A model generated the notes under the pieces. That model was not told the origin of the DNA. It saw only the letters and a list, made by a program, of their open reading frames with translations, and did not search any database. This document shows, piece after piece, positions 14,401-53,250 of a stretch of 64,000 nucleotides of DNA. The stretch lies in the NCBI RefSeq assembly GCF_964355755.1, contig NC_092678.1:16659881-16723880 (forward strand). The letters run 5' to 3'. Made by a program: the position numbers and the translations under genes. The stretch comes from Antedon mediterranea. Taxonomy: Eukaryota > Animalia > Echinodermata. How positions within the stretch are numbered: position 1 is the stretch's first letter; each line of letters begins with the position of its first letter.

Positions 14401-17400
14401 GGATCACTTACTATCCGTATCACACTTGTTGTAACCAAAGTTTGTCTAGTGGTGCTAATATTCTGTTTACTAATCATCTTAGTACCCTAGGAAGATACTC
14501 AACAAGTATGGAAACGTATAGATATCTACACCGTTTTCCGATGATTTTAATTCTTGTTGGCTTGGTTGGTGTTAATTCTCAGTTTTTAATAGATCCACAA
14601 TCTGCTGAAGTGACACAGGGTGCAGACCATGGGTTGGAATGTGTTGTCAACAGAACCTATCTTGCTGGTTATTATTTTGTTGCATGGACTAAAGATTCTG
14701 AGGTTTTCTCGGCACCTAACCAAATTGATAAGGTTGCTTTAGAAAATATAAATGGTGAAGACCCCGAAGATCGATACACAATTATCAAAATTGACCAAGG
14801 TAACACAGGAACGTATAAATTGATTATTGATTCAGTAAAAGGTGTAGATTCTGGAAATTATCAATGTGTAATTTGTCAACATCCGCCAACTTCATATGAG
14901 TGTACAGCCATTACAGATTTTAAATCTACTGTAGCAACATTGAATGTCTTGTATACCCCATCAGTCCCTGAATATCCAGAATGTACTGGTTTGGACAGTT
15001 CTACAACCGTGTCTGTTGGAACTCAAGTTGAGGTGACATGTGTGTCGGAAATTGGTGATCCAAAGGTTCAATTACAATGGAATAAGGATGGTGTACCGTT
15101 ATCAAGTACAGTAACTGAAAGAGAAGATAATAACAGACTTTATCTTATATACACTTTTACAGCAGAACTCTCCCATACTGGTATGGTTTTAAGCTGCTCT
15201 TCTACAAGCTCATATTTTACATCATACTCGGAATCGTGTAGCTTTAATGCGCTGAATGTTGTTGACATGCCAGTGGTGGCTGCTACTTCAGGAGCTGCAG
15301 AGGATGAAGAAGGATCGCAAACAACACCTGTATCAGAATATAGTAGTGATTCTTGTGCAGCGGCTATTAATAAATCTATAAAATGTTTGCATATTTTTGG
15401 TAAATATTTAGATGGTAATTAATTTTGTTTTTATAGTCTGTTTTGGATTGACCAATAGCAGACTGTGTTTGAAGATTCTGTTTGGCATTTCCTCACATTT
15501 TGTATCTGTTTTGTACACTAGAAATTTAGTTAAGTAAGCTACACTCTGAACTTATATATTATAAAATGTGAAGATATTTTTCCTTTTTTAAATTCAGTAG
15601 AGAGTAGTGTGTTGTATCATCCTCAGACTTAAAATTGCATTGTCTTGAAAAAAAACAGGAAAAATGAAGATTAATAAAATCAGTCTTTGAATATGTCATT
15701 TTGTAATTTTAATCAAGTCACTTTTGTAAAAAAAATAAAAACAATTATGTTTTCACTTTATAAATATACAAAATAACAGTTAAATTCACCATCATCATCA
15801 TGACTATTTTTGCCTAAATTACAGTTTTTTTCAGATAAATCATTTTTTTTTCTGATCAATTTTGGGTCAAAGTAATAACTATTATGTGATATTAAATGGA
15901 ATATTAAAAAATATATAAACAATATATCTTAAGCAAAAAAACCATATATATATATATATAATCTACACTGTAGTTTTATATTACTTTTTTATATTGCATA
16001 ATTTTGTAAAAAATGTAATCATGTAATTTGGTAAAAATGACATAACTAAACAAATATATTGTGTTTTTTTTCTTTAACTTTAATTGTAAAAATCAAGAAA
16101 TATGTGATTTTTTGTTTGTTTTCCTTTTAAAAGTTACCTCACCTTTTCTCCTTAATACCAGAAGGAAGCAATTGCACTTGATTAGAAAAACTGATCTTTA
16201 CTTCTTAAAAGTTCCTTATAATGTATGCATGTAACAAGAAAACCGTGTGGTTTTTATGATAGGAAAACCAACAATAGATCGACTGTAGACTTACAAGTTC
16301 TTTGCTCTATGATAGGAAAATTACCAACAATAGTTAATACTGTATGTATGTTGAAGTTCTTTTTTCTCTATCAAAGATTTAAATTTAATATCTTTTGACA
16401 CTCCCTTTTGTTGTACTGTATGTCACTGATGAATAAAATAAGAATGTCAATAAATATTATTATAGTTCAATTATGGTCTATCTGAGTTGCAATTGCAGTC
16501 TATACGGCTTTTTCTCGAAACGGAAAACATCCTTACGATCGATAACGAAAAGTGTTGTGCAAGGAAGAAAATAGAACAGAAATAACTTAGCATTTTCAGG
16601 GGATTTCATGACACCATGTTAATTAAAACCTTTACTGTAAATGTCCTTAAAAGATTGACTTACTTTCTGAATGATAAAAAACGAATGAGAACATTTTTTA
16701 GATCACCTAAAATCCAACGGAAAGAAGACAAAGTGTTTAAGCATAGACACACTCTCCATGTGTGACAGCACCGTTTTATCACAGTGCATTAATAATCGTG
16801 TTCTTTAAATCAGCAATCAGTTTAAGGGAGTTAACTGATCACACAAAGCACTTGGAGAAAACTCAGTTGTAATATGTCCGACCAGGTGTACAGTAATTAT
16901 TCCATGTAGTAAGGCTCCTTCGGCAAATTATTTCAAGCTACAAAAACGCTTTCAGAAAATGTCATAGAAATGCGTTTGGCAGACCGTTTGGTTAAACACT
17001 GTTTGGATGCCTTTATTCAAGTTTGGCATGTTGCTCCCCATCATTTAACGTTTGACTGAGCAGCATATTGTTTTTTCTTTTGTACGATTCCTTCATTGAG
17101 TATTTGGGACTTTACGAAACACGACCGGCAGTCTCTCCCTCCCCTGTCTCTTGGCACGGTGCCCTTCTAAATCGCTTGGCTCTGGTGATACAGCATAAGC
17201 CTTCCTAGCTAGGGCCTCACATTCAAACGCAACTTTTAACACAGCAATTTGAACCCAATAAAAATGTTGTTTCATTAAACAATTAAATTAGAAGTTCAAA
17301 TAATATTATTAGAATTTTTAAAATTCCACGTTAAGTGTAATTTGAACGGTATTTATGTACTTTATTTTTAGTCGTTTTCCGTAAACGGGAAAATGGCAAC

Positions 17401-23317: not shown

Positions 23318-24597
23318 ATGGAAACATCTAGATATCTACATGGTTTGCCGATGATTTTAATTCTTGTTGGCTTGGTTGGTGTTAATTCTCAGTTTTTAAC
23401 CGAGCCACAATCTGCAGAAGTGACACAGGGTGCAGACCATGTTTTGGAATGCATTGTCAACAGAACCTATCTTTTTGGTTTTTATTTGTTGCATGGACTA
23501 AAGATTCTGAGGTTTTCTCGGCACGTCATCACATTGATAAGGTTGCTTTAGAAAATATAAATGGTGAAGACCCAGAAGATCGATACTGGATTATTAAAAT
23601 TTACCAAGGTGACGTAGGAAAGTATAATTTGGTTATTGATTCAATAAAAGGTGTAGATTCTGGAAATTATCAATGTGCAATTTGTCAACATTCTTCAACC
23701 TCATATGTGTGTACAGCCATTACAGATTTTAAATCTACTGTAGCAACATTGAATGTCTTGTACACTCCATCAGTCCCTGAATATCCAGAATGTACTGGTT
23801 TGGACAGTTCTGCAACTGTGTCTGTTGGAACTCAAGTTGAGGTGACATGTGTGTCGGAAATTGGTGATCCAAAAGTTCATTTACAATGGAATAAGGATGG
23901 TGTACCGTTATCAAGTACAGTAACTGAAAGAGAAGATAATAACATACTTTATCTTATATACACTTTTATAGCAGAACTCTCCCATACTGGTATGGTTTTA
24001 AGCTGCTCTTCTACAAGCTCTCATTTTACATCATACTCGGAATCTTGTAACTTTAATGCGCTTAATGTTGTTGATATGCCTGTGGTGGCCGTTACTTCAG
24101 GAGCTGCAGTGTATGAAGAAGGATCACCAGCAAACTTTACCTGTTCAGCCTTCAGTTCTACTTCTACAGCAATAACTTTTGAATGGTTTGTGGGTAATAT
24201 ACCAAAGAGCAGGTATACACAGAATGATACGAGAATGGAATCTGTTTTGACAATCACTTCAGTTATAGCTAGTGATCATCAGACTGCAATCAAATGCGTT
24301 GTAAGAAATGAGCAGGGACAAACTGCACAGGACCAAGTATTTTTGGAAGTTATCAGTAGGCCTACAAATATGATTCCAACAAGCAGAATTGATGAACAAC
24401 CACAATTAACCATAACACGTGTACCAGATGATGGTAACGAGTCTTGTTCAGTCGCTATTGGTGGCACTGTTGTTGTATATAGTATAGTTCTTTTGATAGT
24501 ATTTCCTTTCCTATAATATTTCTGTAGGAAAAGGAAACAAAAAAAAGATGTTTTATCAGTAGAGCTTAAAAAAAATGACCTAAGACCTCTAATGTGA
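23318..24597 (+). pseudogene. Ig-superfamily copy 3: signal + 3 Ig domains + TM + basic cytoplasmic tail, disrupted
   Basis: 1-nt frameshift near 23485 in a T-run. Third Ig: ANFTC..FEWF..SVLTI..IKCVV. TM: VAIGGTVVVYSIVLLIVFPFL. An in-frame TAA at 24514 precedes YFCRKRKQKK...PLM* (stop at 24595-24597). Confidence 0.8.
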
Positions 24598-27770: not shown

Positions 27771-28295
27771 AAGATGAACAGAAATACTATTACTAACGTT
27801 TCAAACAAAAAACATATCTCTACATAACTTATCCTTAGACAGTAATGTTGTATGCAATAACTGATACTTTAAATTGTTTCAATTTCAAGTACTAGTTATT
27901 GCTGTCCCCAAGAACATTTTGATAGAAACGTCAAGCTCAACAGTTCTTTTCAGAATGCTAGAAGTAACTTGCCATGTGTATCCGATTAAACTCCCCAGGC
28001 ATTTATTGTTCAAAGGGGTTTTTAGGGGCAGGGGAGGCATCTTTATTTGTGGTATAATATGGTAATATGTATTTATTTTTTTTTTGGATGCGTATGAAAT
28101 TATGTAAAAAACTAATTTACTGTTTTATGGCATACAGGAAAGGTGAGCATAGACCAGACAATAGAACTAAAAAAATAAAAACTTGAGGTCTAAAAACTAA
28201 ACATGACTAAGAAAAGCGGGACAGAGGCAGTTGGCCTAAGTAGTAAATAAGGTACTTCAGTCCACCCTAGCATTTCATTAATTAATTAATTAGAT

Positions 28296-28452
28296 TAATT
28301 TCCTGTTATTGTAATAATTAAATTATTCCTAATTAATGAAGGTCATTCTTTTCCTGGTTTCGTAATAATTAAATTATTCTTAATTAATGAAGGTCGTTCT
28401 TTTCCTGATTTCGTAATAATTAAATTATTCTTAATTAATGAAGGTCTTTCTT
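28296..28452. repeat. Left subterminal ~51-bp tandem repeat, about 3 copies
   Basis: taattaatgaaggtc.ttcttttcctg.tttcgtaataattaaattattct repeated. Confidence 0.9.
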
Positions 28453-29327
28453 TGTTAGGGGCGTTATTTATTAATATATTTATTTATATTTTAATGGTGT
28501 TTTGCAATGGATTATAAATCGTCCTTGCTGGAGGTTAATTAATCTAATTATTTCGGGTTTCCGTTCTGACCTTTAGTAATTATTTTTTGCTGGTAAAAAT
28601 TTAATTAGCATATCCTACAGATGATCCTTTATTTAATTATTTGTTTTATGGCGCAATTTGTAATTCTTTTGTTTAGTTTTGATTGAAGGGTATGTTTTTA
28701 TCTGGTGTATTATAATTATTGTTTTCTTTTGCAAGGGGTACCCTCCATTGTCCCCTCCATTTTCCCCAATCTTTCTTATCGCATTGTCCATAATGATTGT
28801 ATTGTTATTTCAAGATATATATTTTGACTGTTCAGACTCCCCCAGTCACTTTCAAATCTCCATTACTGACTTAACATCTCATGGTTACCAGTTCAAGTGG
28901 ATTTTGTATAATATATTTTCTACTTTTCTGCGTTCCTGTTTTCGATTTTGTATAATATATTTTCTACTTTTCTGCGTTCCTGTTTTCTAATATTGTAAGT
29001 ACTACTGTTGTTGTCTCGGTATAGTATATTTTTTATTTAGTAATTCTTATTGAGTCGTACTGTCACGTAAAAGGCATTTAATTATCGTTTTTCCTCGGTT
29101 CTTTTAATTATTTTTCGCTGTCTCTTTTTGTCTCTCTAGATCCCTTGCTGTACTCGATTCATTTGTCTCGTTTTTTGGATTTACCAATTTGTTTGGGTGT
29201 ATATTATTTCTATAGCCTAATGTGAGTTTCTTTTTTCTGTTTATTTTCTATTTCGTTATATTAGAGTAGCTCTCAACTTTTTTTATTTTTTTTTCAATTA
29301 ATTTATTGTTATTGTATCGTTGTATAG

Positions 29328-29522
29328 ATGGATATTTCTTACATCCCCACAAGTATGTTAGAAGAGGTGGTTAAGCTCCTCGTCTACGCCGCCTGTAGGC
29401 GGTACATTTTGATGGCAGTGCCTGATTCCACGCTGTGGTATCTGCTAAAGGTTGCCATAGAGGAAATGGAGGAGGAGTTTTACGGGGAGCCTGCGATGTA
29501 TCACCCCTATCCGCCGGCATAA
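29328..29522 (+). CDS. Small ORF or terminal exon of unknown function, unique to the left arm (64 aa)
   Basis: GC-richer island in T-rich DNA, preceded by a pyrimidine tract and AG, oriented inward like all other element genes. No family recognised. Confidence 0.45.
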   Translation: MDISYIPTSMLEEVVKLLVYAACRRYILMAVPDSTLWYLLKVAIEEMEEEFYGEPAMYHPYPPA

Positions 29523-29704
29523 TGCTTGTCGAAGATATCATATTTTTACAGGTTATTTTTGTTCACAAAAAATTTCATCTGGTTTTTATTGTTTTGTATT
29601 TTATATATTTTTTCATTAATTTTTTTTGAGAAATTGATTTTGTAAACAATTGTTTCCAGTTGTTTCCTTTTAATTGTTCAGTGCTTCCCGTTTAGGTATA
29701 ATAA

Positions 29705-29975
29705 ATTATTTTTCTGGCGCGTATTTTTGATTTGTCCTTTCTCCCATCTCTCCATTTTTTCCCTTTGTTGTTTAATTAAGGTGTTTCCTGGGTCCATGTT
29801 TTTCATTTGGTCGAAGGTTATATCTAATGGTCACTGCTGTGGGAAGGTCTTCCTAATTATGTAAGGGTTGTTTGACCAATCTTAATAGCGGACACATTTC
29901 CTAAAGGAAGTTCTAAGTACCTTTGTTTGTTTGTTTTTTAATTTAATTAGTGTCATGGGATGGTATAAAACAACG
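29705..29975 (+). promoter_or_regulatory. Candidate polB promoter (E2F-like site, CCAAT, TATA), mirrored at ~41665-41940 on the minus strand
   Basis: ttttctggcgcg at ~29710, gaccaatc at ~29874 and TATAAAA at 29964, about 70 nt before ATG 30038. All are conserved in the right arm. Confidence 0.5.
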
Positions 29976-30037
29976 TAAGTGTGGATAATTCTTTATTCGC
30001 CTACTGATTATCCAAGACTTATTACTGATTTTTTACA

Positions 30038-33000
30038 ATGGCTCATTACGCATCATCATCATCATCTTCCGATTCTAACGATAGATTGTTTAACGAATGC
30101 CAGAGAGCAGTTGACGCTATCGTTAGCTTATCGCGGAATAATGTAGAAAATATTGATACCCACGATTTTATCCCCGATATTGGACTACTAGAAGATTTCG
30201 TATTTAATGATCAGGACCTTGATTTTGCAGTTAGCCAGAGTGTTTCTGAAGCCGATAGCCTCTTACTTAAATGGATATTTGCAATAATGCTATTGAGATA
30301 GTGCAGGAGCTATCGGCTAATTTGCGTATTGATCACGTAGAAGTAAGTGTTTGTTTAATTTATTTTTTACGTAATATTTATTTTACCGTGTATAATTCTA
30401 AAAAAGTAGATTGTGTGTAACCGAACGTGTGTTTACAGCGTTTTACGGCTTCTTTGTGTTTCTTTCTAATTTATTTATTTATTTATTTTTAAATTTTTTT
30501 GTTTACCGTGTATATCTCATAAAGTGTTTCTGCGTTTACGGTTTATACGCGTTTTCCTTTCTAATTTATCTATTTATTTTTTTCTGTATATAGTACGGTG
30601 TTGGTGCTCACACCAAATGTTTAAGATTGAGAGGAAATGTCGAGATTAATGATTCAGTGGAGTCTTCGATTACTGAGGTAACTATCGTTTTATTTTCTTT
30701 ACTACTGTTGTTGTTGTTGTTGTACCACGTCTTTTATTTCTTTTTCTTTACCGTTTTTCTCTGTTTGTTTTCAGCCTGCACCCATACAATACGGAAGGGG
30801 CGTTAATAGAAAGAGGCTCAGAATCGAAGACGGAGAAGAATTTGCCGATATTGATACTGTTGAAGACGAGAACCTTAATCTGGATGAGGTAGAGTTGAGT
30901 CACTTCTGTAGTATTGTTCAATTAGCTGATAGGTATAATCAACGTTTTAACGCGACTATTAGTGATTTTTTAGTTAATTTTTTTAATGTTGATCATTTAA
31001 GTTTAGAGGTGTTTCTGCCCACACTGTATCGAATTTTCGAGCATGTCGTCGATAATGTCTGCGTTAACGTGCATGTCGACGACATGCTTCGAATAGTCAT
31101 ACAGGCTGAGGGGTTAGATTCACCTATCTCTATCCCTTTTGGACGGAGGGGCCATCTTACGGCTGACGTTATTTTTGCAGCCATTATGAAGGTCCTTCAG
31201 TCCAAAACGGATATTTTTATTAATAACAAGTTTAAATTTAACGTTCTCCACATGAGAATGCCTAGGGGTGGGGGCTATAGAAGAAACGGTATCGACATAT
31301 TGTTAAATGCTAAATGTATAATTAAGATTAAGAATGATGATAACGAAACTATCTGCTGCGCACGCGCTATTGTTACGGGTATTTCTATGCTCGAAGACAA
31401 AATTAACAACGTAACTAGATGGAATAACGTTAGGCAAGGTTGGCGTCAGCAAAAAATAGCCGCCCTTCATTTACTTAGAGATTCGGGGGTTAGGGAGCAG
31501 ACATGTGGCATCGAGGAAATAAAAAAGATGCAATCAAAATTACCAAATTACCAAATTATTGTCATTTCAAAAGACAATTTAAATTCTGTCATTTTTAGCG
31601 GCGATTATAGAAAGAAGCAGATATATCTTTATCACCATTCTAATCATTACGATCTCATAACCACAATGACAGGTTTTCTAAAATTTGACTATTTCTGCGA
31701 TAGATGTCATAAGGGGTATAATCACAAATACCAACACAATTGTCAATTTACGTGCGTGCTGTGTAAGCACAATGACTGCCCCTCTTCTAATTCTTTTGAT
31801 AATAGAGAGAGTAGAATAGAATGTAAAGAATGTAATAGATTTTTTAAGGATAAGCAATGTTTCACCAATCATAAACAATCTCCTGATTCTAAAGTTTCAG
31901 TATGTGGCAAAATTAAAAATTGTTCAACTTGTAATAGGATCGTTCAAAAAGATCACAATTGTCAAAACCGCTTTTGTAGAATTTGTAGGACTTTCGTTTC
32001 ATACGATCATCAATGCTACATGGAACCGGTTGTAGCCCCTAAGCATACTGAAAGAAAGTTTAAGAATCAGGAGACCCGTAACAGAGCTGTCACCAAATAT
32101 TTCTTTTTTGATTTCGAATGCACGCAAGATACAGGCGAACACAAACCAAATTTATGCGTTCTTCAAAAAACTTGTCTTAATTGTATCGACGGTGCTAATG
32201 ATTCCGCCGATTGTGACGTGTGTGGGGATAAAACAGTGGTTTTTCACGGGGGGTCTGCATGCGAAGATTTCTGCAATTACGTTTTCAAAGATTACAAATT
32301 TAACGAAAATAGTACGTGTATCGCTCACAACTTCCAGGGTTATGATAGCTACTTCGTGCTCAACTACCTGTACGAAAACTCCATTGTACCGGATGTAATT
32401 GCTCGCGGTTGTAAACTTATTTCGATTAGGACTAAAGAAACGAGCATTCGATTCATCGATTCCCTTTCATTTCTGCCCATGCCTCTATCCAAATTGCCCA
32501 AAACTTTTGGGATCTCCGAACTTAAAAAGGGTTACTTTCCTCATTATTTTAATTCTTTAGAAAACCAAAATTACGTAGGTCCTTACCCCGATTCTTCAAA
32601 TTATTCCCCCGATAAAATGACTACTTCAGGTCGAGAATCTTTCTTTAAATGGTACAACCAGAAAATTGAAAGTAATCAAATATTTGATCTTAAAAAAGAA
32701 CTCGTCGAGTATTGTATCAGCGATGTAGATATTCTCAGAAAGTGTTGTCTTACTTTTAGACATCTTTTTTTGAAAGTAACTATATCGCCGAAAGACCCTC
32801 TACTCGGCGGTGTTGACCCCTTTTCAAATAATTTAATGACAATTGCCTCAGCGTGTAACCACGTATTTTCTAGAAATTTTTTAAAACCATCCACCATCGC
32901 TCTATTTCCATCATCAGGGTATCTAACAACCGTTAACCATTCTCACTCTAGCATGGAATGGCTGTGCTACGAGTCGCATAAAAGGGGGTCTTTATCCATC

Positions 33001-34693
33001 ATGCCAGAAATGGAGGGGAAAAAATGTTTGGGCCTTACTCCGTCGACGGCGCATGTTTAGAAAACAAAATAATTTTCGAATTTATGGGTTGTTTTTTCCA
33101 CGGGTGCCAAGATTGTTATAGACCCGATTCCATTAATCCCTTCAATAACGAGACCATGTTGGAATGCTTTGTCAAGACAAGCAAGAAAACACGGTTTCTG
33201 AAGGAACAATTTCCAGATTTCGAGTACGTCGAAATTTGGGAACACGAATGGAAACGGATCAAACAATCGTTGGCCCCAAACATTAAATCTATCGTCTCCA
33301 AAGTTCCTTTAATTAGGCAAACTTTGAATCCAAAGACGCGTTTTTCGGTGGGAGGACTAATGCCAGTTGTTTGTTCTATAAGGTAAAACCGGGTGAAGAA
33401 ATTAATTACATAGATTATACTTCCTTGTACCCTTATGTAAATAAATACGGTACCTACCCCGTAGGGCATCCTGAAATCAATGATCGCAACGACATGTCCA
33501 CAGATATCAACGATTATTTCGGCTTGATAAAGTGTACAATCGAAGCGCCTAAAAAATTATTCCATCCGGTCTTACCTTATAGATCAAACGGTAAATTAAT
33601 GTTTGCTCTCTGTAGAACATGCGCCGATTCTCAACAACAAACCGCTTGCAATCATTCCGGTACAGATAGAGAATTTACGGGTTCTTGGGCAACGATCGAA
33701 GTCGCTAAAGCCGTGGAAGTTGGGTACGAGATACGTAAAGTTCACGTAGTATGGCACTTTAAAAATAAAAGCGCGTACTCTGCAGATTCTCCCTCGTCCG
33801 GTATATTTGCCTCTTACATTAACACCTTTTTAAAATTGAAACAAGAAGCTTCGGGTTGGCCTGAATGGTGTAAAACGCCCGAAGATAAACAAAAATACAT
33901 TTCGGACTATCGAACCGTAGAAGGTATCGACTTGAATCATGACGACATTGCGTACAATCCTGGGCTTCGATCTCTGGCCAAATTAATGCTAAATAGTTTT
34001 TGGGGTAAATTTGGCCAGCGTGAAAATCTCACGAAAATTAAATACACGCAAGATCCTAACGAGGTTTACGATATTTTATCGAACCCTGGGATAACCGTTC
34101 ATGACATAAATTTTGTTAATGATGATTTGGCGGAGGTAAAATACGAGGACGAGGAACAATTTGTAGAAGTTAACCGAAAGGTTAACGTTGTCATTGCCGC
34201 ATTTACCACAGCGTTAGCGCGTTTAAAATTGTACGAGCTGTTGGAGCAATTACAGGAGCGCGTCCTGTATTATGATACCGACAGCGTAATCTTCGTATCA
34301 AAACCCAGGGAATGGGACCCTCCCCTGGGCGACTATTTGGGTCAGTTAACGACCGAGGTCGATCCTAAAGATGGTAAATTCATCGAGTCCTTCGTTTCTG
34401 GAGGGCCTAAGAACTACGCCTATAAATTGGATACGGGGAAGACCGTTTGTAAAGTTAAGGGTTTTACCCTTAACTTTACAAACGCTCAGAAAATTAATTT
34501 TGACACCGTCTCCAATATGGTAAGGGGTGTTGGTCCCGATACAATTAAGACGGTTGAGAAGAATCGCATAACGCGCAAGCCAAAAACACGAAAGATAGTC
34601 AACGAAACATCGACTAAAGACTATCGAATCGTGTACGACAAAAGAATTATTATCGAAAATTATCGTACAGTTCTTTACGGGTATGTTTGGTGA
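30038..34693 (+). CDS. polB: Protein-primed family B DNA polymerase (Polinton type), left copy; spliced join(30038-30342,30594-30677,30775-34693); frameshifted as assembled
   Basis: Exonuclease motifs FFDFE, AHNFQGYD and YCISDV; polymerase motifs YIDYTSLYP, KLMLNSFWGK, YYDTDS, KNY and KVKG; OTU-like ICCARAI..HYDLI; Cys clusters; Vsr-like insert VDG..EFMGCFFHGC..WEHEW. Frameshifts near 30265, 32985 and 33333 relative to the right copy. Confidence 0.93.
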
Positions 34694-34879
34694 ATCACGG
34701 CCATAAATTTCTTTTCAAAAATGTAAACATACTTTGTTATAGATAATTATTTGTTACTCTTTATACATTCTTTACCGTACTCTCTCTTTTTTTTTTTTAT
34801 AGTTTGAACAAAATATATTTGTAGTTTTAATGTAAATATTTTTATACCTGTTTTAATATAAATAATTTTTATACCCGTT

Positions 34880-35430
34880 TTTTAAAGTCGAATTTTTGCG
34901 GGGTTAAGTACATATATTTTTAAATATTTTTCCGCTTGATTTTCTTATGTCGATGCCGTTTCTCTTTTTGTAGATTAAGTACATATATTTCGTAATTTTA
35001 ATTTAAATATTTTACCACTTGAATTCTTATGTCGATACCGTTTCTCCTTTTTGTAAATTAAGTAAATATATTTTTCCACTTGAATTTCTTATGTCGATAC
35101 CGTTTCTCTTTTTGTAGATTAAGTAAATATTGTTATAACTGTTTTAATGTTAATAAATTTTATACTTATAAAAATCGATTTTTGTAGGTTAAGCAATATT
35201 GTTGTAATTTTAATTTAAATATTTCTCCACTTGAATTCTTATGTCGATACCGTTTCTCTTTTTGTAGATTAAGTAAATATTGTTATAACTGTTTTAATGT
35301 TAATAAATTTTATACTTATAAAGTCGATTTTTGTAGATTAAGCAATATTTTTGTAATTTTAATTTAAATATTTTTCGACTTGAATTCTTATGTCGATACC
35401 GTTTCTCATTTTGCGGATTAAGCAAATACA
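34880..35430 (+). repeat. Degenerate tandem array downstream of left polB, 5 copies of core tatgtcgataccgtttct
   Basis: Cores start at 34946 (1 mismatch), 35028, 35090, 35240 and 35389. Confidence 0.92.
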
Positions 35431-35637
35431 TGTTTGTAAAGTTATTTTGTTTTATGCGAAATTTGAAATAAATTTAATCACTGTACTTGTTTATAATATA
35501 TATACTTGTCTGTTTCTTAATGTTGACGTAGACGATGATGATAACAACAACAACAACAAAAGACGTACGTAATGGTGACTGTAATTTTTATTTTATCGTA
35601 TCCAATATAAATATTGTAATCTCTCCTCTTTCTTGTT

Positions 35638-36101
35638 CAGTCCAGTCGATCAAGTACCATGCTTTGTTAATTCCTAGCTTCGTACTACATAGAACAAGTT
35701 CCTATAAAAATAATAATAATAAATAAAAGATAATATAGAAATTAACCATGAACTCTGAACGTGGGAAAAAAGACTTGTGTCAATTGACACTTGAACTTGA
35801 CCTCTATACAAGGACGAATAGACTGTGACAATTAACCATGACCTCTGGTCCCAAAAGCATGGGGGTTTCAGTTTTCGACTTCGTCGAAATTTGAGAGCCT
35901 CCCAATAAAACGGTTGACCAGAGGTCATGGTTAATTTCTATATTATCTTTTATTTATTATTATTATTTTTATAGGAACTTGTTCTATGTAGTACGAAGCT
36001 AGGAATTAACAAAGCATGGTACTTGATCGACTGGCTAGTAGGCATTTATAAGGCCTTGCTGGAACGAATTGTTTGGTGACGTTGGATAAATAAAAAATTT
36101 A
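35638..36101. other. Branched imperfect hairpin at the symmetry axis of the element
   Basis: Stem 35642-35750/35926-36034; alternative inner stem 35831-35850/35916-35935; apical TTTCGAC-TTC-GTCGAAA at 35873-35889; side palindrome GTGTCAATTGACAC at 35777-35790; right-arm bulge 36035-36101. Confidence 0.85.
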
Positions 36102-36309
36102 AACAAGAAAGAGGAGAGATTACAATATTTATATTGGATACGATAAAATAAAAATTACAGTCACCATTACGTACGTCTTTTGTTGTTGTTGTTGTTATCA
36201 TCATCGTCTACGTCAACATTAAGAAACAGACAAGTATATATATTATAAACAAGTACAGTGATTAAATTTATTTCAAATTTCGCATAAAACAAAATAACTT
36301 TACAAACAT

Positions 36310-36710
36310 GTATTTGCTTAATCCGCAAAATGAGAAACGGTATCGACATAAGAATTCAAGTCGAAAAATATTTAAATTAAAATTACAAAAATATTGCTTA
36401 ATCTACAAAAATCGACTTTATAAGTATAAAATTTATTAACATTAAAACAGTTATAACAATATTTACTTAATCTACAAAAAGAGAAACGGTATCGACATAA
36501 GAAATTCAAGTGGAAAAATATATTTACTTAATTTACAAAAAGGAGAAACGGTATCGACATAAGAATTCAAGTGGTAAAATATTTAAATTAAAATTACGAA
36601 ATATATGTACTTAATCTACAAAAAGAGAAACGGCATCGACATAAGAAAATCAAGCGGAAAAATATTTAAAAATATATTTACTTAACCCCGCAAAAATTCG
36701 ACTTTAAAAA
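36310..36710 (-). repeat. Mirror tandem array downstream of right polB, 4 core copies
   Basis: agaaacggtatcgacata at 36333, 36482, 36544 and 36626 (1 mismatch); one ~150-bp unit fewer than the left array. Confidence 0.92.
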
Positions 36711-36893
36711 ACGGGTATAAAAATTATTTATATTAAAACAGGTATAAAAATATTTACATTAAAACTACAAATATATTTTGTTCAAACTATAAAAAAAAAA
36801 GAGAGAGTACGGTAAAGAATGTATAAAGAGTAACAAATAATTATCTATAACAAAGTATGTTTACATTTTTGAAAAGAAATTTATGGCCGTGAT

Positions 36894-39800
36894 TCACCAA
36901 ACATACCCGTAAGGAACTGTACGATAATTTTCGATAATAATTCTTTTGTCGTACACGATTCGATAGTCTTTAGTCGATGTTTCGTTGACTATCTTTCGTG
37001 TTTTTGGCTTGCGCGTTATGCGATTCTTCTTAACCGTCTTAATTGTATCGGGACCAACACCCCTTACCATATTGGAGACGGTGTCAAAATTAATTTTCTG
37101 AGCGTTTGTAAAGTTAAGGGTAAAACCCTTAACTTTACAAACGGTCTTCCCCGTATCCAATTTATAGGCGTAGTTCTTAGGCCCCCCGGAAACGAAGGAC
37201 TCGATGAATTTACCATCTTTAGGATCGACCTCGGTCGTTAACTGACCCAAATAGTCGCCCAGGGGAGGGTCCCATTCCCCGGGTTTTGATACGAAGATTA
37301 CGCTGTCGGTATCATAATACAGGACGCGCTCCTGTAATTGCTCCAACAGCTCGTACAATTTTAAACGCGCTAACGCTGTGGTAAATGCGGCAATGACAAC
37401 GTTAACCTTTCGGTTAACTTCTACAAATTGTTCCTCGTCCTCGTATTTTACCTCCGCCAAATCATCATTAACAAAATTTATGTCATGAACGGTTATCCCA
37501 GGGTTCGATAAAATATCGTAAACCTCGTTAGGATCTTGCGTGTATTTAATTTTCGTGAGATTTTCACGCTGGCCAAATTTACCCCAAAAACTATTTAGCA
37601 TTAATTTGGCCAGAGATCGAAGCCCAGGATTGTACGCAATGTCGTCATGATTCAAGTCGATACCTTCTACGGTTCGATAGTCCGAAATGTATTTTTGTTT
37701 ATCTTTGGGCGTTTTACACCATTCAGGCCAACCCGAAGCTTCTTGTTTCAATTTTAAAAAGGTGTTAATGTAAGAGGCAAATATACCGGACGAGGGAGAA
37801 TCTGCAGAGTACGCGCTTTTATTTTTAAAGTGCCATACTACGTGAACTTTACGTATCTCGTACCCAACTTCCACGGCTTTAGCGACTTCGATCGTTGCCC
37901 AAGAACCCGTAAATTCTCTATCTGTACCGGAATGATTGCAAGCGGTTTGTTGTTGAGAATCGGCGCATGTTCTACAGAGAGCAAACATTAATTTACCGTT
38001 TGATCTATAAGGTAAGACCGGATGGAATAATTTTTTAGGCGCTTCGATTGTACACTTTATCAAGCCGAAATAATCGTTGATATCTGTGGACATGTCGTTG
38101 CGATCATTGATTTCAGGATGCCCTACGGGGTAGGTACCGTATTTATTTACATAAGGGTACAAGGAAGTATAATCTATGTAATTAATTTCTTCACCCGGTT
38201 TTACCTTATAGAACAAACAACTGGCATTAGTCCTCCCACCGAAAAACGTGTCTCTTGGATTCAAAGTTTGCCTAATTAAAGGAACTTTGGAGACGATAGA
38301 TTTAATGTTTGGGGCCAACGATTGTTTGATCCGTTTCCATTCGTGTTCCCAAATTTCGACGTACTCGAAATCTGGAAATTGTTCCTTCAGAAACCGTGTT
38401 TTCTTGCTTGTCTTGACAAAGCATTCCAACATGGTCTCGTTATTGAAGGGATTAATGGAATCGGGTCTATAACAATCTTGGCACCCGTGGAAAAAACAAC
38501 CCATAAATTCGAAAATTATTTTGTTTTCTAAACATGCGCCGTCGACGGAGTAAGGCCCAAACATTTTTTCCCCTCCATTTCTGGCATGATGGATAAAGAC
38601 CCCCCTTTTATGCGACTCGTAGCACAGCCATTCCATGCTAGAGTGAGAATGGTTAACGGTTGTTAGATACCCTGATGATGGAAATAGAGCGATGGTGGAT
38701 GGTTTTAAAAAATTTCTAGAAAATACGTGGTTACACGCTGAGGCAATTGTCATTAAATTATTTGAAAAGGGGTCAACACCGCCGAGTAGAGGGTCTTTCG
38801 GCGATATAGTTACTTTAAAAAAAAAGATGTCTAAAAGTAAGACAACACTTTCTGAGAATATCTACATCGCTGATAAAATACTCGACGAGTTCTTTTTAAG
38901 ATCAAATACTTGATTACTTTCAATTTTCTGGTTGTACCATTTAAAGAAAGATTCTCGACCTGAAGTAGTCATTTTATCGGGGGAATAATTTGAAGAATCG
39001 GGGTAAAGACCTACGTAATTTTGGTTTTCTAAAGAATTAAAATAATGAGGAAAGTAACCCTTTTTAAGTTCGGAGATCCCAAAAGTTTTGGGCAATTTGG
39101 ATAGAGGCATGGGCAGAAATGAAAGGGAATCGATGAATCGAATGCTCGTTTCTTTAGTCCTAATCGAAATAAGTTTACAACCGCGAGCAATTACATCCGG
39201 TACAATGGAGTTTTCGTACAGGTAGTTGAGCACGAAGTAGCTATCATAACCATGGAAGTTGTGAGCGATACACGTAATATTTTCGTTAAATTTGTAATCT
39301 TTGAATACGTAATTGCAGAAATCTTCGCATGCAGACTCCCCGTGAAAAACCACTGTTTTATCCCCACACACGTCACAATCGGCGGAATCATTAGCACCGT
39401 CGATACAATTAAGACAAGTTTTTTGAAGAACGCATACATCTGGTTTGTGTTCGCCTGTATCTTGCGTGCATTCGAAATCAAAAAAGAAATATTTGGTGAC
39501 AGCTCTGTTACGGGTCTCCTGATTCTTAAACTTTCTTTCAGTATGCTTAGGGGCTACAACCGGTTCTATGTAGCATTGATGATCGTATGAAACGAAAGTC
39601 CTACAATTTCTACAAAAGCGGTTTTGACAATTGTGATCTTTTTGAACGATCCTATTACAAGTTGAACAATTTTTAATTTTGCTACATACTGAAACTTTAG
39701 AATCAGGAGATTGTTTATGATTGGTGAAACATTGCTTATCCTTAAAAAATCTATTACATTCTTTACATTCTATTCTACTCTCTCTATTATCAAAAGAATT

Positions 39801-41593
39801 AGAAGAGGGGCAGTCATTGTGCTTACACAGCACGCACGTAAATTGACAATTGTGTTGGTATTTGTGATTATACCCCTTATGACATCTATCGCAGAAATAG
39901 TCAAATTTTAGAAAACCTTTCATTGTGGTTATGAGATCGTAATGATTAGAATGGTGATAAAGATATATCTGCTTCTTTCTATAATCGCCGCTAAAAATGA
40001 CAGAATTTAAATTGTCTTTTGAAATGACAATAATTTGGTAATTTGGTAATTTTGATTGCATCTTTTTTATTTCCTCGATGCCACATGTCTGCTCCCTAAC
40101 CCCCGAATCTCTAAGTAAATGAAAGGCGGCTATTTTTTGCTGACGCCAACCTTGCCTAACGTTATTCCATCTAGTTACGTTGTTAATTTTGTCTTCGAGC
40201 ATAGAAATACCCGTAACAATAGCGCGTGCGCAGCAGATAGTTTCGTTATCATCATTCTTAATCTTAATTATACATTTAGCATTTAACAATATGTCGATAC
40301 CGTTTCTTCTATAGCCCCCACCCCTAGGCATTCTCATGTGGAGAACGTTAAATTTAAACTTGTTATTAATAAAAATATCCGTTTTGGACTGAAGGACCTT
40401 CATAATGGCTGCAAAAATAACGTCAGCCGTAAGATGGCCCCTCCGTCCAAAAGGGATAGAGATAGGTGAATATAACCCCTCAGCCTGTATGACTATTCGA
40501 AGCATGTCGTCGACATGCACGTTAACGCAGACATTATCGACGACATGCTCGAAAATTCGATACAGTGTGGGCAGAAACACCTCTAAACTTTTATGATCAA
40601 TATTAAAAAAATTTACTAAAAAATCGCTAATAGTCGCGTTAAAACGTTGGTTATACCTATCAGCTAATTGAACGATTCTACAGAAGTGATTCAACTCTAC
40701 CTCATCAAGGTTAAGGTACTCGTCTTCAACAGTATCAATATCGGCAAATTCTTCTTCTTCTTCTCCGTCTTCGATTCTGAGCCTCTTTCTATTAACGCCC
40801 CTTCCGTATTGTATGGGTGCAGGCTGAAAACAAAAAGAGAAAAACGGTAAAGAAAATGAAATAAAAGACGTTGTACAACAACAACAACAACAGTAGTAAA
40901 GAAAATAAAACGATAGTTACCTCAATAATCGAAGACTCCGCTGAATCATTAATCTCGACATTTCCTCTCAAACTCAAACATTTGGTGTGAGCACCAACAC
41001 CGTACTATACAGAAAAAAAAAAAAAATAGATAAATTAGAAAGGAAAACGTATATAAACCGTAAACGCAGAAACACTTTGTAAATGCCCCAATTACATAAA
41101 CTACTACTTTATGAGATATACCCGGTAAAAAAAAAAAAATTTAAAATTAAATAAATAAATTAGAAAGAAACACAAAGAAGCCGTAAAACGCTGTAAACAC
41201 ACGTTCGGTTACACGCAATCTACTTTTTTAGAATTATACACGGTAAAATAAATAGTACGTTAAAAAAAAATAAAATAAACAAACACTTACTTCTACGTCA
41301 TCAATACGCAAATTAGCCGATAGCTCCTGCACTATCTCAATAGCATTATTACAAATATCCGAAAGTGAGAGGCTATCGGCTTCAGAAACACTCTGGCTAA
41401 CATCCAAATCAAGATCCTGGTCATTAAATACGAAATCTTCTAGTAGTCCAATATCGGGGATAACATCGTCGGTATCGATATTTTCGACATTATTTTGCGA
41501 TAAACTAACGATAGCTTCTACTGCTCTCTGGCATTCGATAAACAAGCTATCGTTAGAATCGGAAGATGATGAAGATGATTCGTTATGAGCCAT
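36894..41593 (-). CDS. polB: Protein-primed family B DNA polymerase, right copy; spliced complement(join(36894-40823,40921-41004,41291-41593)), ~1438 aa if repaired
   Basis: Same motifs as the left copy, plus FFGGRT. A -1 indel (~38893) and a compensating +1 indel (~38820), both in homopolymers, create a stop at 38862. GT-AG phase-0 introns. Confidence 0.93.
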
Positions 41594-41727
41594 TGTAAAA
41601 AAAAAAAAATCAGTAATAAGTCTAGAATAATCAGTAAGCGAATGAAGAATTACCCACACTTACGCTGTTTTTATACCATCCCATGACACTAATTACATTT
41701 AATAATATATGCAAACAAAGGTACTTG

Positions 41728-42148
41728 GAACTTCCTTTAGGAAATGTGTCCGCTATTAAGATTGGTCAAACAGCCCTTACATAATTAGGAAGACCCTCCC
41801 ACAACAGTGACCATTAGATTTAGCCTTCGACAAAACGGAAAAACATGGACCCCGGAAACACCTTAATTAAAACAACAAAGGGAAAAAATTGAGAGATGTA
41901 GTGAAAGGACAAATCAAAAATACGCGCCAGAAAAATAATTTATTATACCTAAACGGGAAGCACTGAAAGCAAGAACTTCCTTTAGGAAATGTGTCCGCTA
42001 TTAAGATTGGTCAAACAGCCCTTAAATAATTAGGAAGACCTTCCCACAACAGTGACCATTAGATTTAGCCTTCGACCAAACGGAAAACATGGACCCAGGA
42101 AACACCTTAATTAAAACAACAAAGGGAGAAAATTGAGAGATGTAGTGA
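41728..42148. repeat. Direct duplication of a ~176-bp upstream block (41728-41904 / 41973-42148) at the edge of arm homology
   Basis: gaacttcctttaggaaatgtgtccgctattaagattggtc...gagagatgtagtga occurs twice. Confidence 0.9.
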
Positions 42149-42194
42149 TACCTTTTTCCGGTCAATCGTTTCCGTGACACGTGCGAAACACAAC

Positions 42195-42749
42195 TTAAAT
42201 GTCCTCGCACAACAGCTTAAAAATAGCCTCTGAATTAATCAGGATATTTACAAGAAAATAAACGAAATGTCTATACCGAGGCAATGAACATTCTCCGTGC
42301 ATATTTAGTTCGTTGTAAACGGTATCGGCTGAAACATACTTCTTATCCAGAACCTCCCGATAAAAATAGTCAATCTGTTCTTCTAGAGACTTCATACAAC
42401 AAAAAACATGATCTTTTTGACTGCTCCTGTCAAATTCACAACCATAACAAGCCGCTTTACTTAACAACCAACACTGGCCTAACACTTGAGCAACAAACAA
42501 TTTTTTAATCAAACGTTCCATTTTCAACAAAAATTCTCTCTCCACCTCGTCCACGTACGTAAATATACAACTTGTAGGCCTGTTACTCTTCTCGACTCCT
42601 TCATCTATACCGGCGGGGATAACCTCTTCGGCCGCCATGTAACGATCATCTATATCACTGCCTGGAACAACAACACTATCCTCGTCATCGCTAATTATTA
42701 TAACAGTATCTACACAACTCCCTTGCGAAAAATATATACTTCCAGACAT
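42195..42749 (-). CDS. Uncharacterised 184-aa protein with a SIM-like motif and a CxGC..SQxxH..CC putative zinc site
   Basis: Intact ATG ORF oriented inward, with motifs VIIISDDEDS and CYGCEFDRSSQKDHVFCC. A paralogous N-terminus occurs at 43893. Confidence 0.7.
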   Translation of the reverse strand: MSGSIYFSQGSCVDTVIIISDDEDSVVVPGSDIDDRYMAAEEVIPAGIDEGVEKSNRPTSCIFTYVDEVEREFLLKMERLIKKLFVAQVLGQCWLLSKAACYGCEFDRSSQKDHVFCCMKSLEEQIDYFYREVLDKKYVSADTVYNELNMHGECSLPRYRHFVYFLVNILINSEAIFKLLCEDI

Positions 42750-42919
42750 AATGAAATACTGTAAAGAGATACTCTACGCAAAAATAGACAAAACAACTGG
42801 AGAATAGTACAACAATAACCGATTCACTTTGTTACACCATCTTAAATCGTAAATAAAGTAATGACGTCACTCACCACGTACCAGAACCTCGCGCCGAAAA
42901 ATTAATAAATATGAGACAA

Positions 42920-43195
42920 AGAAACACCTGGCGGAAATTACATAACTAATACAATAACAGGAAAAGAACGACCTTCATTAGAAACACCTGGCGGAAATTA
43001 CATAACTAATACATTAACTGGAAAAGAACGACCTTCATTAGAAACACCTGGCGGAAATTACATAACTATTACAATAACAGGAAATGAATGACCTTCATTA
43101 GAAACACCTGGCGGAAATTACATAACTATTACAATAACAGGAAATGAATGACCTTCAATAGAAACACCTGGCGGAAATTACGTAATCAGGAAATA
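42920..43195. repeat. 60-bp tandem repeat, about 4.5 copies
   Basis: agaaacacctggcggaaattacataacta.tacaataacaggaaa.gaa.gaccttcatt repeated. Confidence 0.95.
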
Positions 43196-43326
43196 CACAA
43201 GGTCATTTTCTGTCTGAAGTCCCACTACTTCTACTCCTACAGGTCCAGGTTTGAAGGCACCATTTTCTTCCGTTTGATAAAATTCTCTGAGGCAAACATA
43301 AACAACTTCACCCCAGCGCTGGGCCA

Positions 43327-43893
43327 CTACATGGCGTTTTTCAGACAGAAAATCCTGTTTGTTGATGTTATTGTAATCTTTGGTTCAGCACCGGTCATTT
43401 CGGCATAATCCTTGGCGCTCATTCCTGGGGCAGAGTGAAATGTTTTTTTACTTGTTGACGGCTTCGTTGCTTTACTCAAATCGTTAGATTGACCGTTGAA
43501 AAATTTTCTAGGATCCAATAATTTCGAGGAGTTAGAAGTCATCGTTGGTACTTTAAAACTGCTACACTCGTCAGTTTTAGAGCTCCTCATAACTCTTTTC
43601 ATAGTCCTACGAGCCTTCTCACCAATTGCTAATTTTGGAGCAGGTACTTTTTTTAAACTCATATTGAGCGATTGTATGTAGAGTGATGTACAGAGAGAGT
43701 GAAACGAACGTAAATATACAACTTGTATCGCGGCTACCCCTCTCAACTCCTTCATCAACACCGGTATACCCTCATTGGTCCGCATGTACCGATCACCGAT
43801 ATCGTTACCTGTAACAACAGTCTCCTCATCATCGGTAATAATTATAACTGTATCTACACAGCTACTTAACGAAAAATCTATACTTCCAGACAT
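43327..43893 (-). pseudogene. Chimeric ORF: degraded paralog of the 184-aa ORF N-terminus fused to a basic, Lys/Ser-rich ORF
   Basis: MSGSIDFSLSSCVDTVIIITDDEE matches the 42749 ORF, then shifts frame. From MSLKKVPAPK onward the sequence is unrelated and basic. Confidence 0.5.
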
Positions 43894-44249
43894 AGCGAAA
43901 TACTGTAACTCTACGTTAAAATAGACGAAACAACTGAAAAGGTCACAAAAAGCAGTCCCTCTTCTTACAATGTCTAAAAAGAAACGGCTCTAAAATATCA
44001 AAAACAAAACTATTGTACCAAACAAAAAGACCAATGAACAAAAGAAATTAGGATATACTAAACAAAGGTGACCTATGCAATAGTCAAACCGCCTAAAAAT
44101 AACAACAGCAATCCTCAAACAAAGAACTACCTTCACTAATATATTTAAATTACAAATTCATCACCAACTACAATTATAACCCAGGCCAAAACGAAAACCC
44201 CGCCAAAATAACAAACCCCCTTCTCTAACAAAGAATGACCGCTAATTAA

Positions 44250-44428
44250 TATTACAATAACAGGAAATTAAACAATAGAAAATATAATATAAACCCTGGG
44301 GATATGACATTCCTTTCGGGTCTGGTACAAAGAGTGACCTTTCACTAATTATTATTACAATACCTGGAAATTAAACAATAGAAATATGAAATATGCCCTG
44401 GGGGTATGACATTCCATTCGGGTCTGGA
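44250..44428. repeat. Right subterminal ~103-bp tandem repeat, 2 copies
   Basis: attacaata.c.ggaaattaaacaatagaaa...ccctgggg.tatgacattcc.ttcgggtctgg occurs twice. Confidence 0.85.
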
Positions 44429-44882
44429 ATACTTCTGCCCTGGGTGTATAAACTTATATTTTGGCCTGGTTTACTCCCTATACTACTCGCATAGTGTATA
44501 AATAGGAATGTTATCGCTATTATTGATACATTTTAGACATTTTGCGAAAAATCGCTGTACAGACATTCCTTTTCTTCAAACAATGGCCATGCGCATGTTA
44601 TATAATGTGACAATTTGTTTTGCACATCAACTTAGAAATTAATGGGCACATTTTGTTTTGAAAAAAAGCAAAGCGACACAAAAATTAAATCAACCGACAA
44701 CACATTAAAAAAAAATATACTGTAAAGGCCTGCTTATTATAATCTATAACAATATGGCAAAATAATTGAATTTTGAAATTAATTAACATAACATACGGTA
44801 TATATTTACCGATGTAGATTGGTAAAAGATAGTGTAGTAGGAAGATAAGCCGCCTCTCACGACGAGTAGGGATACAATCATT

Positions 44883-45002
44883 AACAAGGCCATATACATG
44901 GCTGCAGTCTCGTGCTCAAGTTAGTGTTTACCGACCAACCTACTACCGACCGACCAACCGACCGACACTGAGCTGTAGAGTCGCGTTGCACACGACTAAA
45001 AA
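44883..45002 (-). mobile_element. Short HINE-like element, same family as 10132-10840
   Basis: Reverse complement matches both ends of the 10132 element, joined through the (gtcg)n tract. Confidence 0.75.
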
Positions 45003-46179
45003 TCATTATACAGGCATACACATTGTATTTGTTTATTTCCTCTGATGAAGTCTTAATTATATGTATATATAAGTTAGTATACAGTAGTTTAATATTTATT
45101 ATCTTGCAAAAAAAAAAAAAACTGTTTTTAGTACATTTCTATTCTTTCATGCATACTATTAAAATAATTTGTTTTATAATTTTTAAAGGGTGCCACAGTT
45201 GCAAAGCTTTGCTTGTTCGTGGTTGCCCATTCCTTTTCATATTATAGCATTTGTTTTAAAATTGTTAAGAAAAAAAATATGATTTGGAATAAAGTGAAGG
45301 CAATTCAAAACAGATTGTGCTTGATCGAACGTTGATCTTATATATAATTGTGTGTGTATGTACAATAGAGGGTTTAAATATGTATAATTATTACAAAAAA
45401 ATGTCTCTAGTAGTGTAAATAATAAAATAAAATGGTTCAGTTGATTTGTAATAAAATAAAAACATTAAAATAAAAGAAATAAAAATAAAAGAAATAAAAA
45501 TATGGTAGATAGTACCTAAACAATTCTAGGTAATTAAACACAAATTTTTATTCCAAATCATAAAAATATGATTAATTTGCACTGTTTCGTCCCTAACTCG
45601 ACGTGCGAGGCGCCCTTGAAATAGTTTCTCGTGTTTATTTTCATTGATCGAATGGGAAGTGTGATATCTTAGGTCTGGTGTATTGTATTTGTTGTATGTA
45701 AGATTCCATAGATAAAGTAGGCCTATAATACTGCATTATTATTATAATTAATGTTCGCTTTTCAGTAATTATTAAAAGATAAAGTTTATTATTATGAGCA
45801 TTCCATAGGCCATGTAAAACAATAATTTGTTCAGCATCTCGATCCCAACTGATGAAATTAATTCCTAATTCCGAATTTCAGGAGCTCATGTGGGCCACTG
45901 TCCGTTTTGATGATATACCGTAACATCTCAAAAAGTAGCGCACCTCGAAAAAAGAACACCTCGAAAAGAAGCCGCTCCTTAGTTTGACAAAAAAATGTTA
46001 TCGGAAAGAAGCCCATCGAAATAAAGCCTGTTGGGATTATCGGGGCTTCTTTAAGGCTTCTTTAGGCCTATTAGTGTTTTTACCCCCATGTTGTGACAGT
46101 GCAACGGATGCTAGGCGAAGAAATTTGCTGACCGCTCGTTTTCCGTTGCTTTTACATTGCAATTTGCCAAGTAACATTA

Positions 46180-53055: not shown

Positions 53056-53250
53056 CTCTGATTCGCACTGATTCGCTCTGATTCGCTATGAATCGCTCTG
53101 GTTCGCTCTGATTCGCACTGATTCGCTCTGATTCGCTATGAATCGCTCTGATTCGCTCTGATTCGCACTGATTCGCTCTGATTCGCACTGATTTGCTCTG
53201 GTTCGCTCTGATTCGCTCTGATTCGCACTGATTCGCTCTGATTCGCTTTG
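53056..53250. repeat. 10-bp minisatellite (attcgctctg)n, about 19 copies
   Basis: Directly visible. Confidence 0.97.

Follow-up and report, generated by a model that had tools for sequence, protein, structure and literature searches.

Antisense pieces of the polymerase gene recur behind polB in Polinton elements: their probable origin and a proposed function

In the window analysed here, which is the whole stretch of 64,000 nucleotides at positions 16,659,881 to 16,723,880 of Antedon mediterranea contig NC_092678.1, a tandem array lies behind polB, the gene for the protein-primed polymerase of a truncated Polinton derivative. The repeated core of this array is exactly antisense to a site inside the same gene. 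Several other Polintons also carried antisense pieces of polB, and only antisense ones, 3' of polB. These pieces are real and recurrent, and a function in damping polymerase RNA is put forward here as a proposal.

The Antisense Core and Its Target Inside polB

As shown in Table 1, the array consists of long and short units, and the long units contain an 18-nt core, TATGTCGATACCGTTTCT, whose reverse complement is the polB coding sequence at 31282–31299. The core was exact at 35028, 35090, 35240 and 35389 and had one mismatch at 34946; these cores lie 253–696 nt after the polB stop. The element is folded back on itself, and its right arm carried four cores, compared with five on the left: those at 36333, 36482 and 36544 were exact and that at 36626 had one mismatch, with the target at 40290–40307. 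An earlier sequence-only reading of the window had given all of these coordinates correctly for both arms, and it had also placed three cores before the first AATAAA past the polB stop (35152), which was confirmed. No further core-like site with up to three mismatches was found elsewhere in the 64-kb window; an 11-nt portion of the core was found again at 42315. The core was the longest inverted match between the coding sequence and the DNA downstream, followed by a (TTG)n microsatellite of 16 nt and a 13-mer. When the codons of the coding sequence were shuffled 1000 times, inverted matches to the DNA downstream reached 17 nt once and 18 nt in no case. Chance, which the sequence-only reading had considered very unlikely, is ruled out by these shuffles.

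The target corresponds to residues 169–174 of the modelled segment and falls within a stretch (residues 164–177) with a predicted local distance difference test (pLDDT) score below 50, which suggests a flexible linker. For the domain after this linker, the 11 best Foldseek rows were OTU domains or proteases, with E values of 0.002–0.011.

In the frame of the target, the reverse complement of the long unit encoded Y-K-K-R-N-G-I-D-I, compared with Y-R-R-N-G-I-D-I in the gene. The sequence-only reading had extended the pairing beyond the core by a 3-nt bulge and two G:U pairs. RNAduplex gave this extension, at −34 kcal/mol, with two units (35090 and 35240); those at 35028 and 35389 paired with the target otherwise, and the extension was poorly kept in other copies. 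Because of the in-frame reverse reading, the bulge and the two G:U pairs can equally be described as an indel of one codon together with a synonymous and a conservative change. The repeat therefore reads as an inverted, captured polB coding piece, about 28 nt long and containing a 3-nt bulge, which was apparently amplified five-fold later. Compared with the unit at 35240, the other four units showed one difference in the core, against 10 and 5 differences in the two flanking stretches of 18 nt. The single core change among the array units turned an A-U pair into a G-U pair.

Antisense polB Pieces in Other Polintons

A total of 114 loci were fetched with a polB alignment, and the metagenome scan covered the best 80 of 408. 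Loci L094–L114 included contigs with Polinton polymerases inside bacterial GTDB metagenome-assembled genomes (Endozoicomonas, Sedimenticola, Dysgonomonas and others), which are probably host contamination. The flank tests used 98 of the first 114 loci, with 16 left out for want of a C-terminus or for great distance. Before the fixed flank test, L026, L052 and L037 were excluded, because their sense matches were real polB beyond a frameshift, and L005, L007, L008, L009, L075 and L109 were excluded because the match stopped short of the stop codon. Among 76 other polB 3' flanks of 600 nt each, five contained antisense and none contained sense polB matches at E ≤ 1e-3. The five were L072, L053, L085, L051 and L028, the last of which was AT-rich and doubtful.

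The pieces in other Polintons were 30–75 nt long, corresponded to different polB sites and often resembled the polB of a sister family more than the carrier's own. The sequence-only reading had proposed, as a check, a search for covarying complementarity at the same coding position in related Polintons. In distant relatives this check failed: none of the 72 other de-duplicated loci paired at the position used in the window, and no compensatory change was seen.

The complete 17.9-kb element L053 has terminal repeats, an integrase and an ATPase. It carried an antisense piece of 39 nt, with 23 nt exact, which lies 59 nt past the stop and is aimed at the sequence immediately ahead of the YxDTDS motif, as well as a 17-nt exact piece and a low-complexity antisense piece aimed further upstream. 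All three were within the 460-nt gap between polB and the ATPase gene. Its sister L025 showed no convincing antisense match or covariation.

In L050, L051, L056, L063, L072 and L085, a hypervariable cassette of 90–550 nt was identified between the polB stop and a conserved terminal block. Short A-rich repeats alternate with unique segments in these cassettes, and some segments are common to several elements. L072 carried two antisense pieces, which were not in mirror order. The best part of one was present in three 31-nt tandem copies, 92–96% identical to sister polBs; the second piece matched the L050 polB at 45/53 positions and its own at 34/53. L085 and L051 carried one piece each and L063 a weaker one; none was detected in L056 and L050. 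L040 contained two antisense pieces 3.0–3.7 kb behind polB, one of which, of 73 nt, was 93% identical to the L051 polB and had no hit to its own polB. These polB pieces, closest to other families, lie in a 1.1-kb non-coding cassette before the terminus of L040 (L040:9452–10560), which also held further coding-like minus-strand segments. Each of the seven other cassettes either had one or more pieces ahead of the first A(A/T)TAAA or lacked such a signal.

On a tree of 78 rows made by a quick method, the window element, L053 and the L040/L063/L072 group sat apart, and L040, L051, L072 and L085 share one assembly prefix and belong to a related clade. Because of this separation, three is taken as the safe count of lineages that would have gained antisense pieces independently.

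All seven clear pieces were antisense (sign test p = 0.008, with pieces that are not independent of each other). The weak matches in L042, L111, L039 and L063 are outside this count. Among 281 other non-coding pieces, four gave antisense matches, of which two were those of L040 and two were explained otherwise, and one gave a sense match. Strong antisense matches were found in none of 278 flanks when other genes were compared with their own 3' flanks, versus 3 of 77 polB flanks, one of them poly-G. Self-comparison revealed non-simple inverted matches in the polB flanks of the window, L053 and L072 (22 kb); in 117 kb of other non-coding DNA, the only inverted matches at E < 0.01 were microsatellite or AT-rich. 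A protein-profile scan of the flank translations identified only L072 (33 bits), with no general antisense excess (Wilcoxon p = 0.46).

Several candidates were dropped as pieces: L108 (terminal-repeat DNA), L096 (tail of a neighbouring gene), L106 (poly-G), L058 (microsatellite) and L097 (promoter-like motif). The L097 motif, AAAGTAGGTCAATCC, occurred at 3138, 4031 and 4484 ahead of the TATA boxes of small genes on both strands; we take it to resemble a nuclear-receptor half-site element. L031 had repeats spaced by 148 nt behind polB, without a complement in the partial gene sequence compared. In viral contigs, the exact 18-mer and the repeat motif of L072 and L085 had no match; a search with a single protein yielded no loci there, and an N-terminal search yielded two distant ones.

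The Core and Its Target in Close Relatives

Contigs of the sequencing runs X3, X6, X8 and X9, from organisms coded A–C, served as close relatives, and the family of the window element was present in all four runs. The target at 31282–31299 was unchanged in X6, X8 and X9. One diverged X3 contig had 12 differences in 31251–31312 and none in 31278–31297; the probability of so few target changes in X3 was 0.07 for the 18-mer and 0.02 for its first 15–16 nt. In the bulge extension, 31275 was changed from C to T in X6, X8 and X9, and 31275–31277 were all changed in one X3 contig. The named Antedon protein keeps YRRNGID, and the residues after it are changed.

The target and the array were always on separate contigs in these runs. 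No joint between them was found in X3 among the 15 of 30 joints that were listed. Because the X3 contigs cover introns and no target–array joint was among those listed, X3 was treated as DNA-like rather than as a record of expression. One contig in X6 and X8 joined intron 1 (30369) to an array unit (35064). Organism B thus has a derivative that lacks the polymerase body or that carries an array unit in the intron.

Probable Origin and Proposed Function

We are confident, if not certain, that the pieces arose by inverted capture of polB sequence and were in places then tandemly amplified. The sequence-only reading had named a one-off inverted capture, amplified later, as the outcome that would speak against its regulatory ideas; capture and amplification proved to be the best account of the origin, and "one-off" was wrong.

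As to function, the reading that we favour, and hold just short of an even chance, is that the pieces form antisense cassettes that may damp the polymerase RNA of their own element and its sisters. Template switching during protein-primed strand-displacement replication would capture the pieces. Read-through of polB, or of the last plus-strand gene, would carry transcription into the cassette. The transcript could then pair with polB mRNA in cis, in a duplex spanning 3.6–4.1 kb at about −31 to −36 kcal/mol, or in trans after being cut into guides of the size of PIWI-interacting RNAs (piRNAs) or small interfering RNAs (siRNAs), and less polymerase would be made by the element and its sisters. 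A perfect core of 15–18 nt is about the pairing length needed for PIWI slicing. Damping is favoured because of the single orientation, the pieces from sister families, the amplification of the best part in two lineages, the three antisense segments within the polB–ATPase gap of the complete element L053, the kept core, the place of the pieces before the poly(A) signal and the precedent of gene-fragment capture in Drosophila described below. The core is kept among the array units and in the diverged X3 contig, and X6 and X8 contigs have unlike AT-rich flanks joined directly onto it at 34949 and 35243–35244, in place of its first three letters. Since neither polB copy in the window is intact and a read-through RNA would form a single long hairpin, we regard the cassette as a family trait rather than a working switch at this locus.

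Several observations weigh against damping. The preference for polB over other donor genes was not significant when target length was considered (p = 0.15), and 71 of the 76 polB flanks had no antisense match, including those of L025, L056 (an empty cassette) and L050. Folding of the five array units was no better than that of shuffled sequences (z from −1.3 to +1.7), the core was mostly in a loop, and the units matched no Rfam family. A pre-miRNA or structured guide was rejected on these grounds, and the small-RNA or guide array suggested by the sequence-only reading found no support in this form. In close relatives, T31298A in three X3 contigs breaks one terminal pair, and the X6 flanks take the place of the first three core letters. 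The peptide [RK][RK][NK]G[IL]D is partly kept in Anneissia, so conservation of the target may be at the protein level. Many pieces shared only 74–85% identity with the best relative sampled, and identities in this range failed to guide piRNA targeting in Drosophila (PMC13534243). Between the pieces and their best matches there were 37 transversions; 17 changes were G:U-compatible and 8 were not (p = 0.054, with one piece mis-registered), which gives no clear G:U bias. No locus compared showed a compensatory change between core and target. The RNA-level pairing suggested by the sequence-only reading thus gains from the antisense pieces in other Polintons and from a core that is better kept than its flanks, and loses from this lack of compensation.

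A neutral by-product is a serious possibility, which we rate distinctly below even. Here, single strands fold back, brief template switches copy inverted pieces into non-coding DNA, re-copying keeps the centres perfect and slippage amplifies them, with no function. The whole window element is a fold-back, intramolecular switching would by itself yield inverted copies, and the pieces are patchy, missing from sisters and decayed in appearance. In L053 and L040 they are in mirror order, as in a much-deleted inverted copy. The coding sequence also holds a perfect 19-bp hairpin without any G:U pair, and hairpin strength tracks the presence of antisense pieces: the VCKVKGFTLNFT hairpin (z = −5.5 against synonymous recodings) was the strongest of 72 loci, and the three strongest, in the window, L040 and L053, are all in carriers of antisense polB pieces (post hoc, p = 0.0008). 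A hairpin at the CKVKGFTLNFT motif was also found in L040, L053 and L015. A tendency of the lineage to copy by fold-back would explain this trio no less well than selection would, which is a further point against damping. However, the two L072 pieces are not in mirror order, and nothing predisposes pieces from sister families to one orientation, yet every one was antisense. Nor does neutrality account readily for non-simple inverted matches that occur in the polB flanks and not in the other non-coding DNA, or for a core that is kept while its flanks change.

Two further readings have less to recommend them. The core could be a protein-binding site or promoter element, present in each array unit and once in the coding sequence on the other strand, so that complementarity is merely orientation. 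L097 provides a precedent, with a 15–16-nt motif before TATA boxes in both orientations that scores as "antisense"; TATAAA stands directly before GTCGA in the short units and the X6 variants, and part of the core recurs at 42315. We consider this improbable. Translated in frame, the unit's reverse complement resembles the linker, as expected of a copy of coding DNA. Other elements hold pieces of different sequence that correspond to different polB motifs, and the 15-nt core was absent from 930 kb of related loci apart from one hit with two mismatches. A splicing bridge is very improbable. In this case, the target–core duplex would set a weak donor at the border of the terminal protein and the OTU domain beside an acceptor in the array, and the polymerase would be looped out to leave an mRNA for the terminal protein only, or such a splice would be masked. 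The gene is predicted to be spliced, and the target lies at the border where terminal-protein cleavage has been proposed (bioRxiv 10.1101/2024.03.18.585575, accessible part). At the end of most long units stands a pyrimidine run with AG and then ATTAA, the AG being at the acceptor place in three of the five, and the phase set by the nearby Gly-codon GT leads into a stop. Against this, the donors are weak, with one of them lost to 31269 T>A in an X3 contig, the AG is missing from two long units, and the pieces of other Polintons aim elsewhere in the gene with no acceptors after them.

A wider reading, which we think unlikely, is that animal Polintons carry spacer-like cassettes behind polB, acquire antisense pieces of their own and sister polymerases, amplify the useful ones and feed them to the small-RNA machinery of the host. 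If this were true, the cassettes would provide protein-free self-restraint and a means of warfare between virus-like transposons that share a genome. Almost nothing is known of how the polymerase is controlled in integrated Polintons or how several families coexist in one animal genome. Functional cassettes would give a sequence-readable record of which family targets which, each with a direct small-RNA prediction. Neutral ones would still record where protein-primed polymerases had switched templates by fold-back, and hosts could silence the elements with the double-stranded RNA that such cassettes inherently supply.

Comparison with Known Systems

Full-text searches of mostly open-access literature brought up no paper on antisense polymerase pieces or arrays of this kind in Polintons, although repeat-library annotations may contain them. 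The finding belongs to none of the known systems compared below, for which the accessible parts of the cited papers were used. The closest working analogue appears to be gene capture by the telomeric retrotransposons of Drosophila (TART-A/nxf2, and captures of aub and piwi), in which gene fragments were captured repeatedly and independently, in up to eight copies (PMC13534243). Those fragments are 140–235 bp long with 76–95% identity and yield antisense piRNAs (PMC13534243). In both cases, short gene pieces lie in the non-coding part of the element, come from different regions in each lineage and are amplified (PMC13534243), and the Polinton cassettes likewise hold captured gene pieces recurrently across lineages. 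The Drosophila donor is a host silencing gene and the carrier is a long interspersed nuclear element (LINE) (PMC13534243). The Polinton pieces are 18–75 nt and come from the polymerase gene of the element itself or of a sister; the donor was polB in every clear case, and not a host silencing gene. piRNAs have been demonstrated in Drosophila (PMC13534243), while the Polinton case is known here from DNA sequence.

The microRNA miR-BART2 of Epstein-Barr virus is also a perfect complement of small-RNA length to the message of the virus's own DNA polymerase, BALF5, and damped replication has been proposed (PMC2241876). It is a hairpin microRNA made from the other strand of that very locus, and its site is in the 3' untranslated region (PMC2241876). 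In contrast, the Polinton array is a separate, repeated copy 3.6–4.1 kb away, is aimed at the coding sequence and has no hairpin; a stable pre-miRNA hairpin with the guide on one arm, as in a microRNA cluster, was not found in the array units. The MIMIVIRE gene R349 of mimivirus lineage A likewise contains 4–5 copies of a 15–18-nt piece that matches a mobile element (PMC6538805). Its repeats are part of a gene that neighbours a helicase and a nuclease, and what they match is a foreign virophage (PMC6538805), whereas the Polinton array is non-coding, matches polB of the same kind of element and has no such neighbours in view. In a system like CRISPR or MIMIVIRE, nuclease or helicase genes would be expected beside the array and none flank it; moreover, the matching part is the constant part. 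The cassettes of L051, L063, L072 and L085 do alternate short repeats with variable pieces, irregularly.

Polinton/Maverick polymerases of the VSR-containing pPolB type have a PF03175 polymerase after an OTU-like domain (PMC10748475; bioRxiv 10.1101/2024.03.18.585575). The window element shares PF03175 and the OTU-like domain, and its relatives have the ATPase, integrase and terminal repeats. Unlike those elements, the window copy is a fold-back half without ATPase, integrase and capsid genes. The accessible part of PMC10748475 makes no mention of tandem repeats, palindromes or small RNA, and that of PMC11131425 makes none of antisense or piRNA.

The Fold-Back Half-Polinton and Its Surroundings

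The region 29677–41967 is a 12-kb fold-back of half a Polinton-type element. Its arms are about 99% alike near the centre and about 90% alike at the edges, and each polB copy is frameshifted at places of its own, a point absent from the sequence-only reading. Between the arms there are 50 substitutions, several indels and a difference of one array period, so the fold-back is taken to be real. An assembly artefact was rejected on these differences and on an X3 contig that carries a junction specific to the right arm. If read through, the fold-back would be a likely source of long double-stranded RNA.

PF03175 was identified in both halves, and the polymerase was 45–52% identical to invertebrate homologues. 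It is a Polinton protein-primed family B polymerase (terminal protein, viral OTU, exonuclease and polymerase; TP-vOTU-Exo-Pol), with OTU Foldseek rows that were all above E = 0.001. Among named proteins, the nearest came from two crinoids, Antedon mediterranea (89% over the region searched) and Anneissia japonica (52%). No integrase, packaging ATPase or capsid open reading frame (ORF) was found in 28000–45500, and the element is a truncated derivative.

Table 1. Coordinates of the array, its target and other features of the element in the 64-kb window.
Feature	Position	Strand	Remarks
Tandem array	34880..35430	+	253–713 nt after polB stop; 5 long and 3 short units; periods 61, 83, 149
Long units with antisense core	34946, 35028, 35090, 35240, 35389	+	in array
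Short units	34887, 35174, 35323	+	GTCGA/ATCGA and T-rich end as in long units; without core middle
Right-arm array	36311..36700	-	4 cores (36333, 36482, 36544, 36626); one 149-nt period less than left
18-nt target	31282..31299	+	polB coding sequence, encodes R-N-G-I-D-I; linker after PxGG, between terminal-protein part and OTU-like domain
Right-arm target copy	40290..40307	-	mirrors left-arm target
Left polB, protein-primed	30038..34693	+	PF03175; frameshifted near 32980 and 33330
Left polB putative exons	30038-30342, 30594-30677, 30775-34693	+	predicted from matches to Antedon protein P0121 and GT/AG borders
Right polB	36894..41593	-	broken near 38820-38900
Perfect 19-bp hairpin VCKVKGFTLNFT	34444..34484	+	within polB coding sequence, codons for CKVKGFTLNFT; no G:U pair
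Fold-back centre, unpaired	35758..35918	.	
Two related small ORFs	42195..43893	-	near element end; C..C..Q..H..C pattern in 42195-42749
ACTACT, likely right element terminus	44482..44487	.	same motif ends L040, L051, L072
AGTAGT, possible left end	28239		

The two small ORFs had no Pfam hit; the cysteine pattern of 42195–42749 recalls the Maverick PZ proteins, a label that we assume here. Polinton terminal inverted repeats end in AG...CT and are flanked by a 6-bp target-site duplication; ACTACT and AGTAGT are presumably motifs of this kind. The two ends showed weak end-to-end similarity, their flanking 6-mers differed, and no target-site duplication was seen. Tandem repeats were present near the element ends, with units of 60 nt (42920–43185), 102 nt (44242–44427) and 51 nt (28299–28453), and the left and right sets were about 70% alike in inverted orientation.

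Elsewhere in the window, a 10-nt tandem repeat of about 20 copies was found at 53050–53250. Three near-identical single-ORF genes with immunoglobulin domains were identified in tandem at 6624–7541, 14508–15422 and 23449–24516, in duplicated blocks of 8–9 kb.

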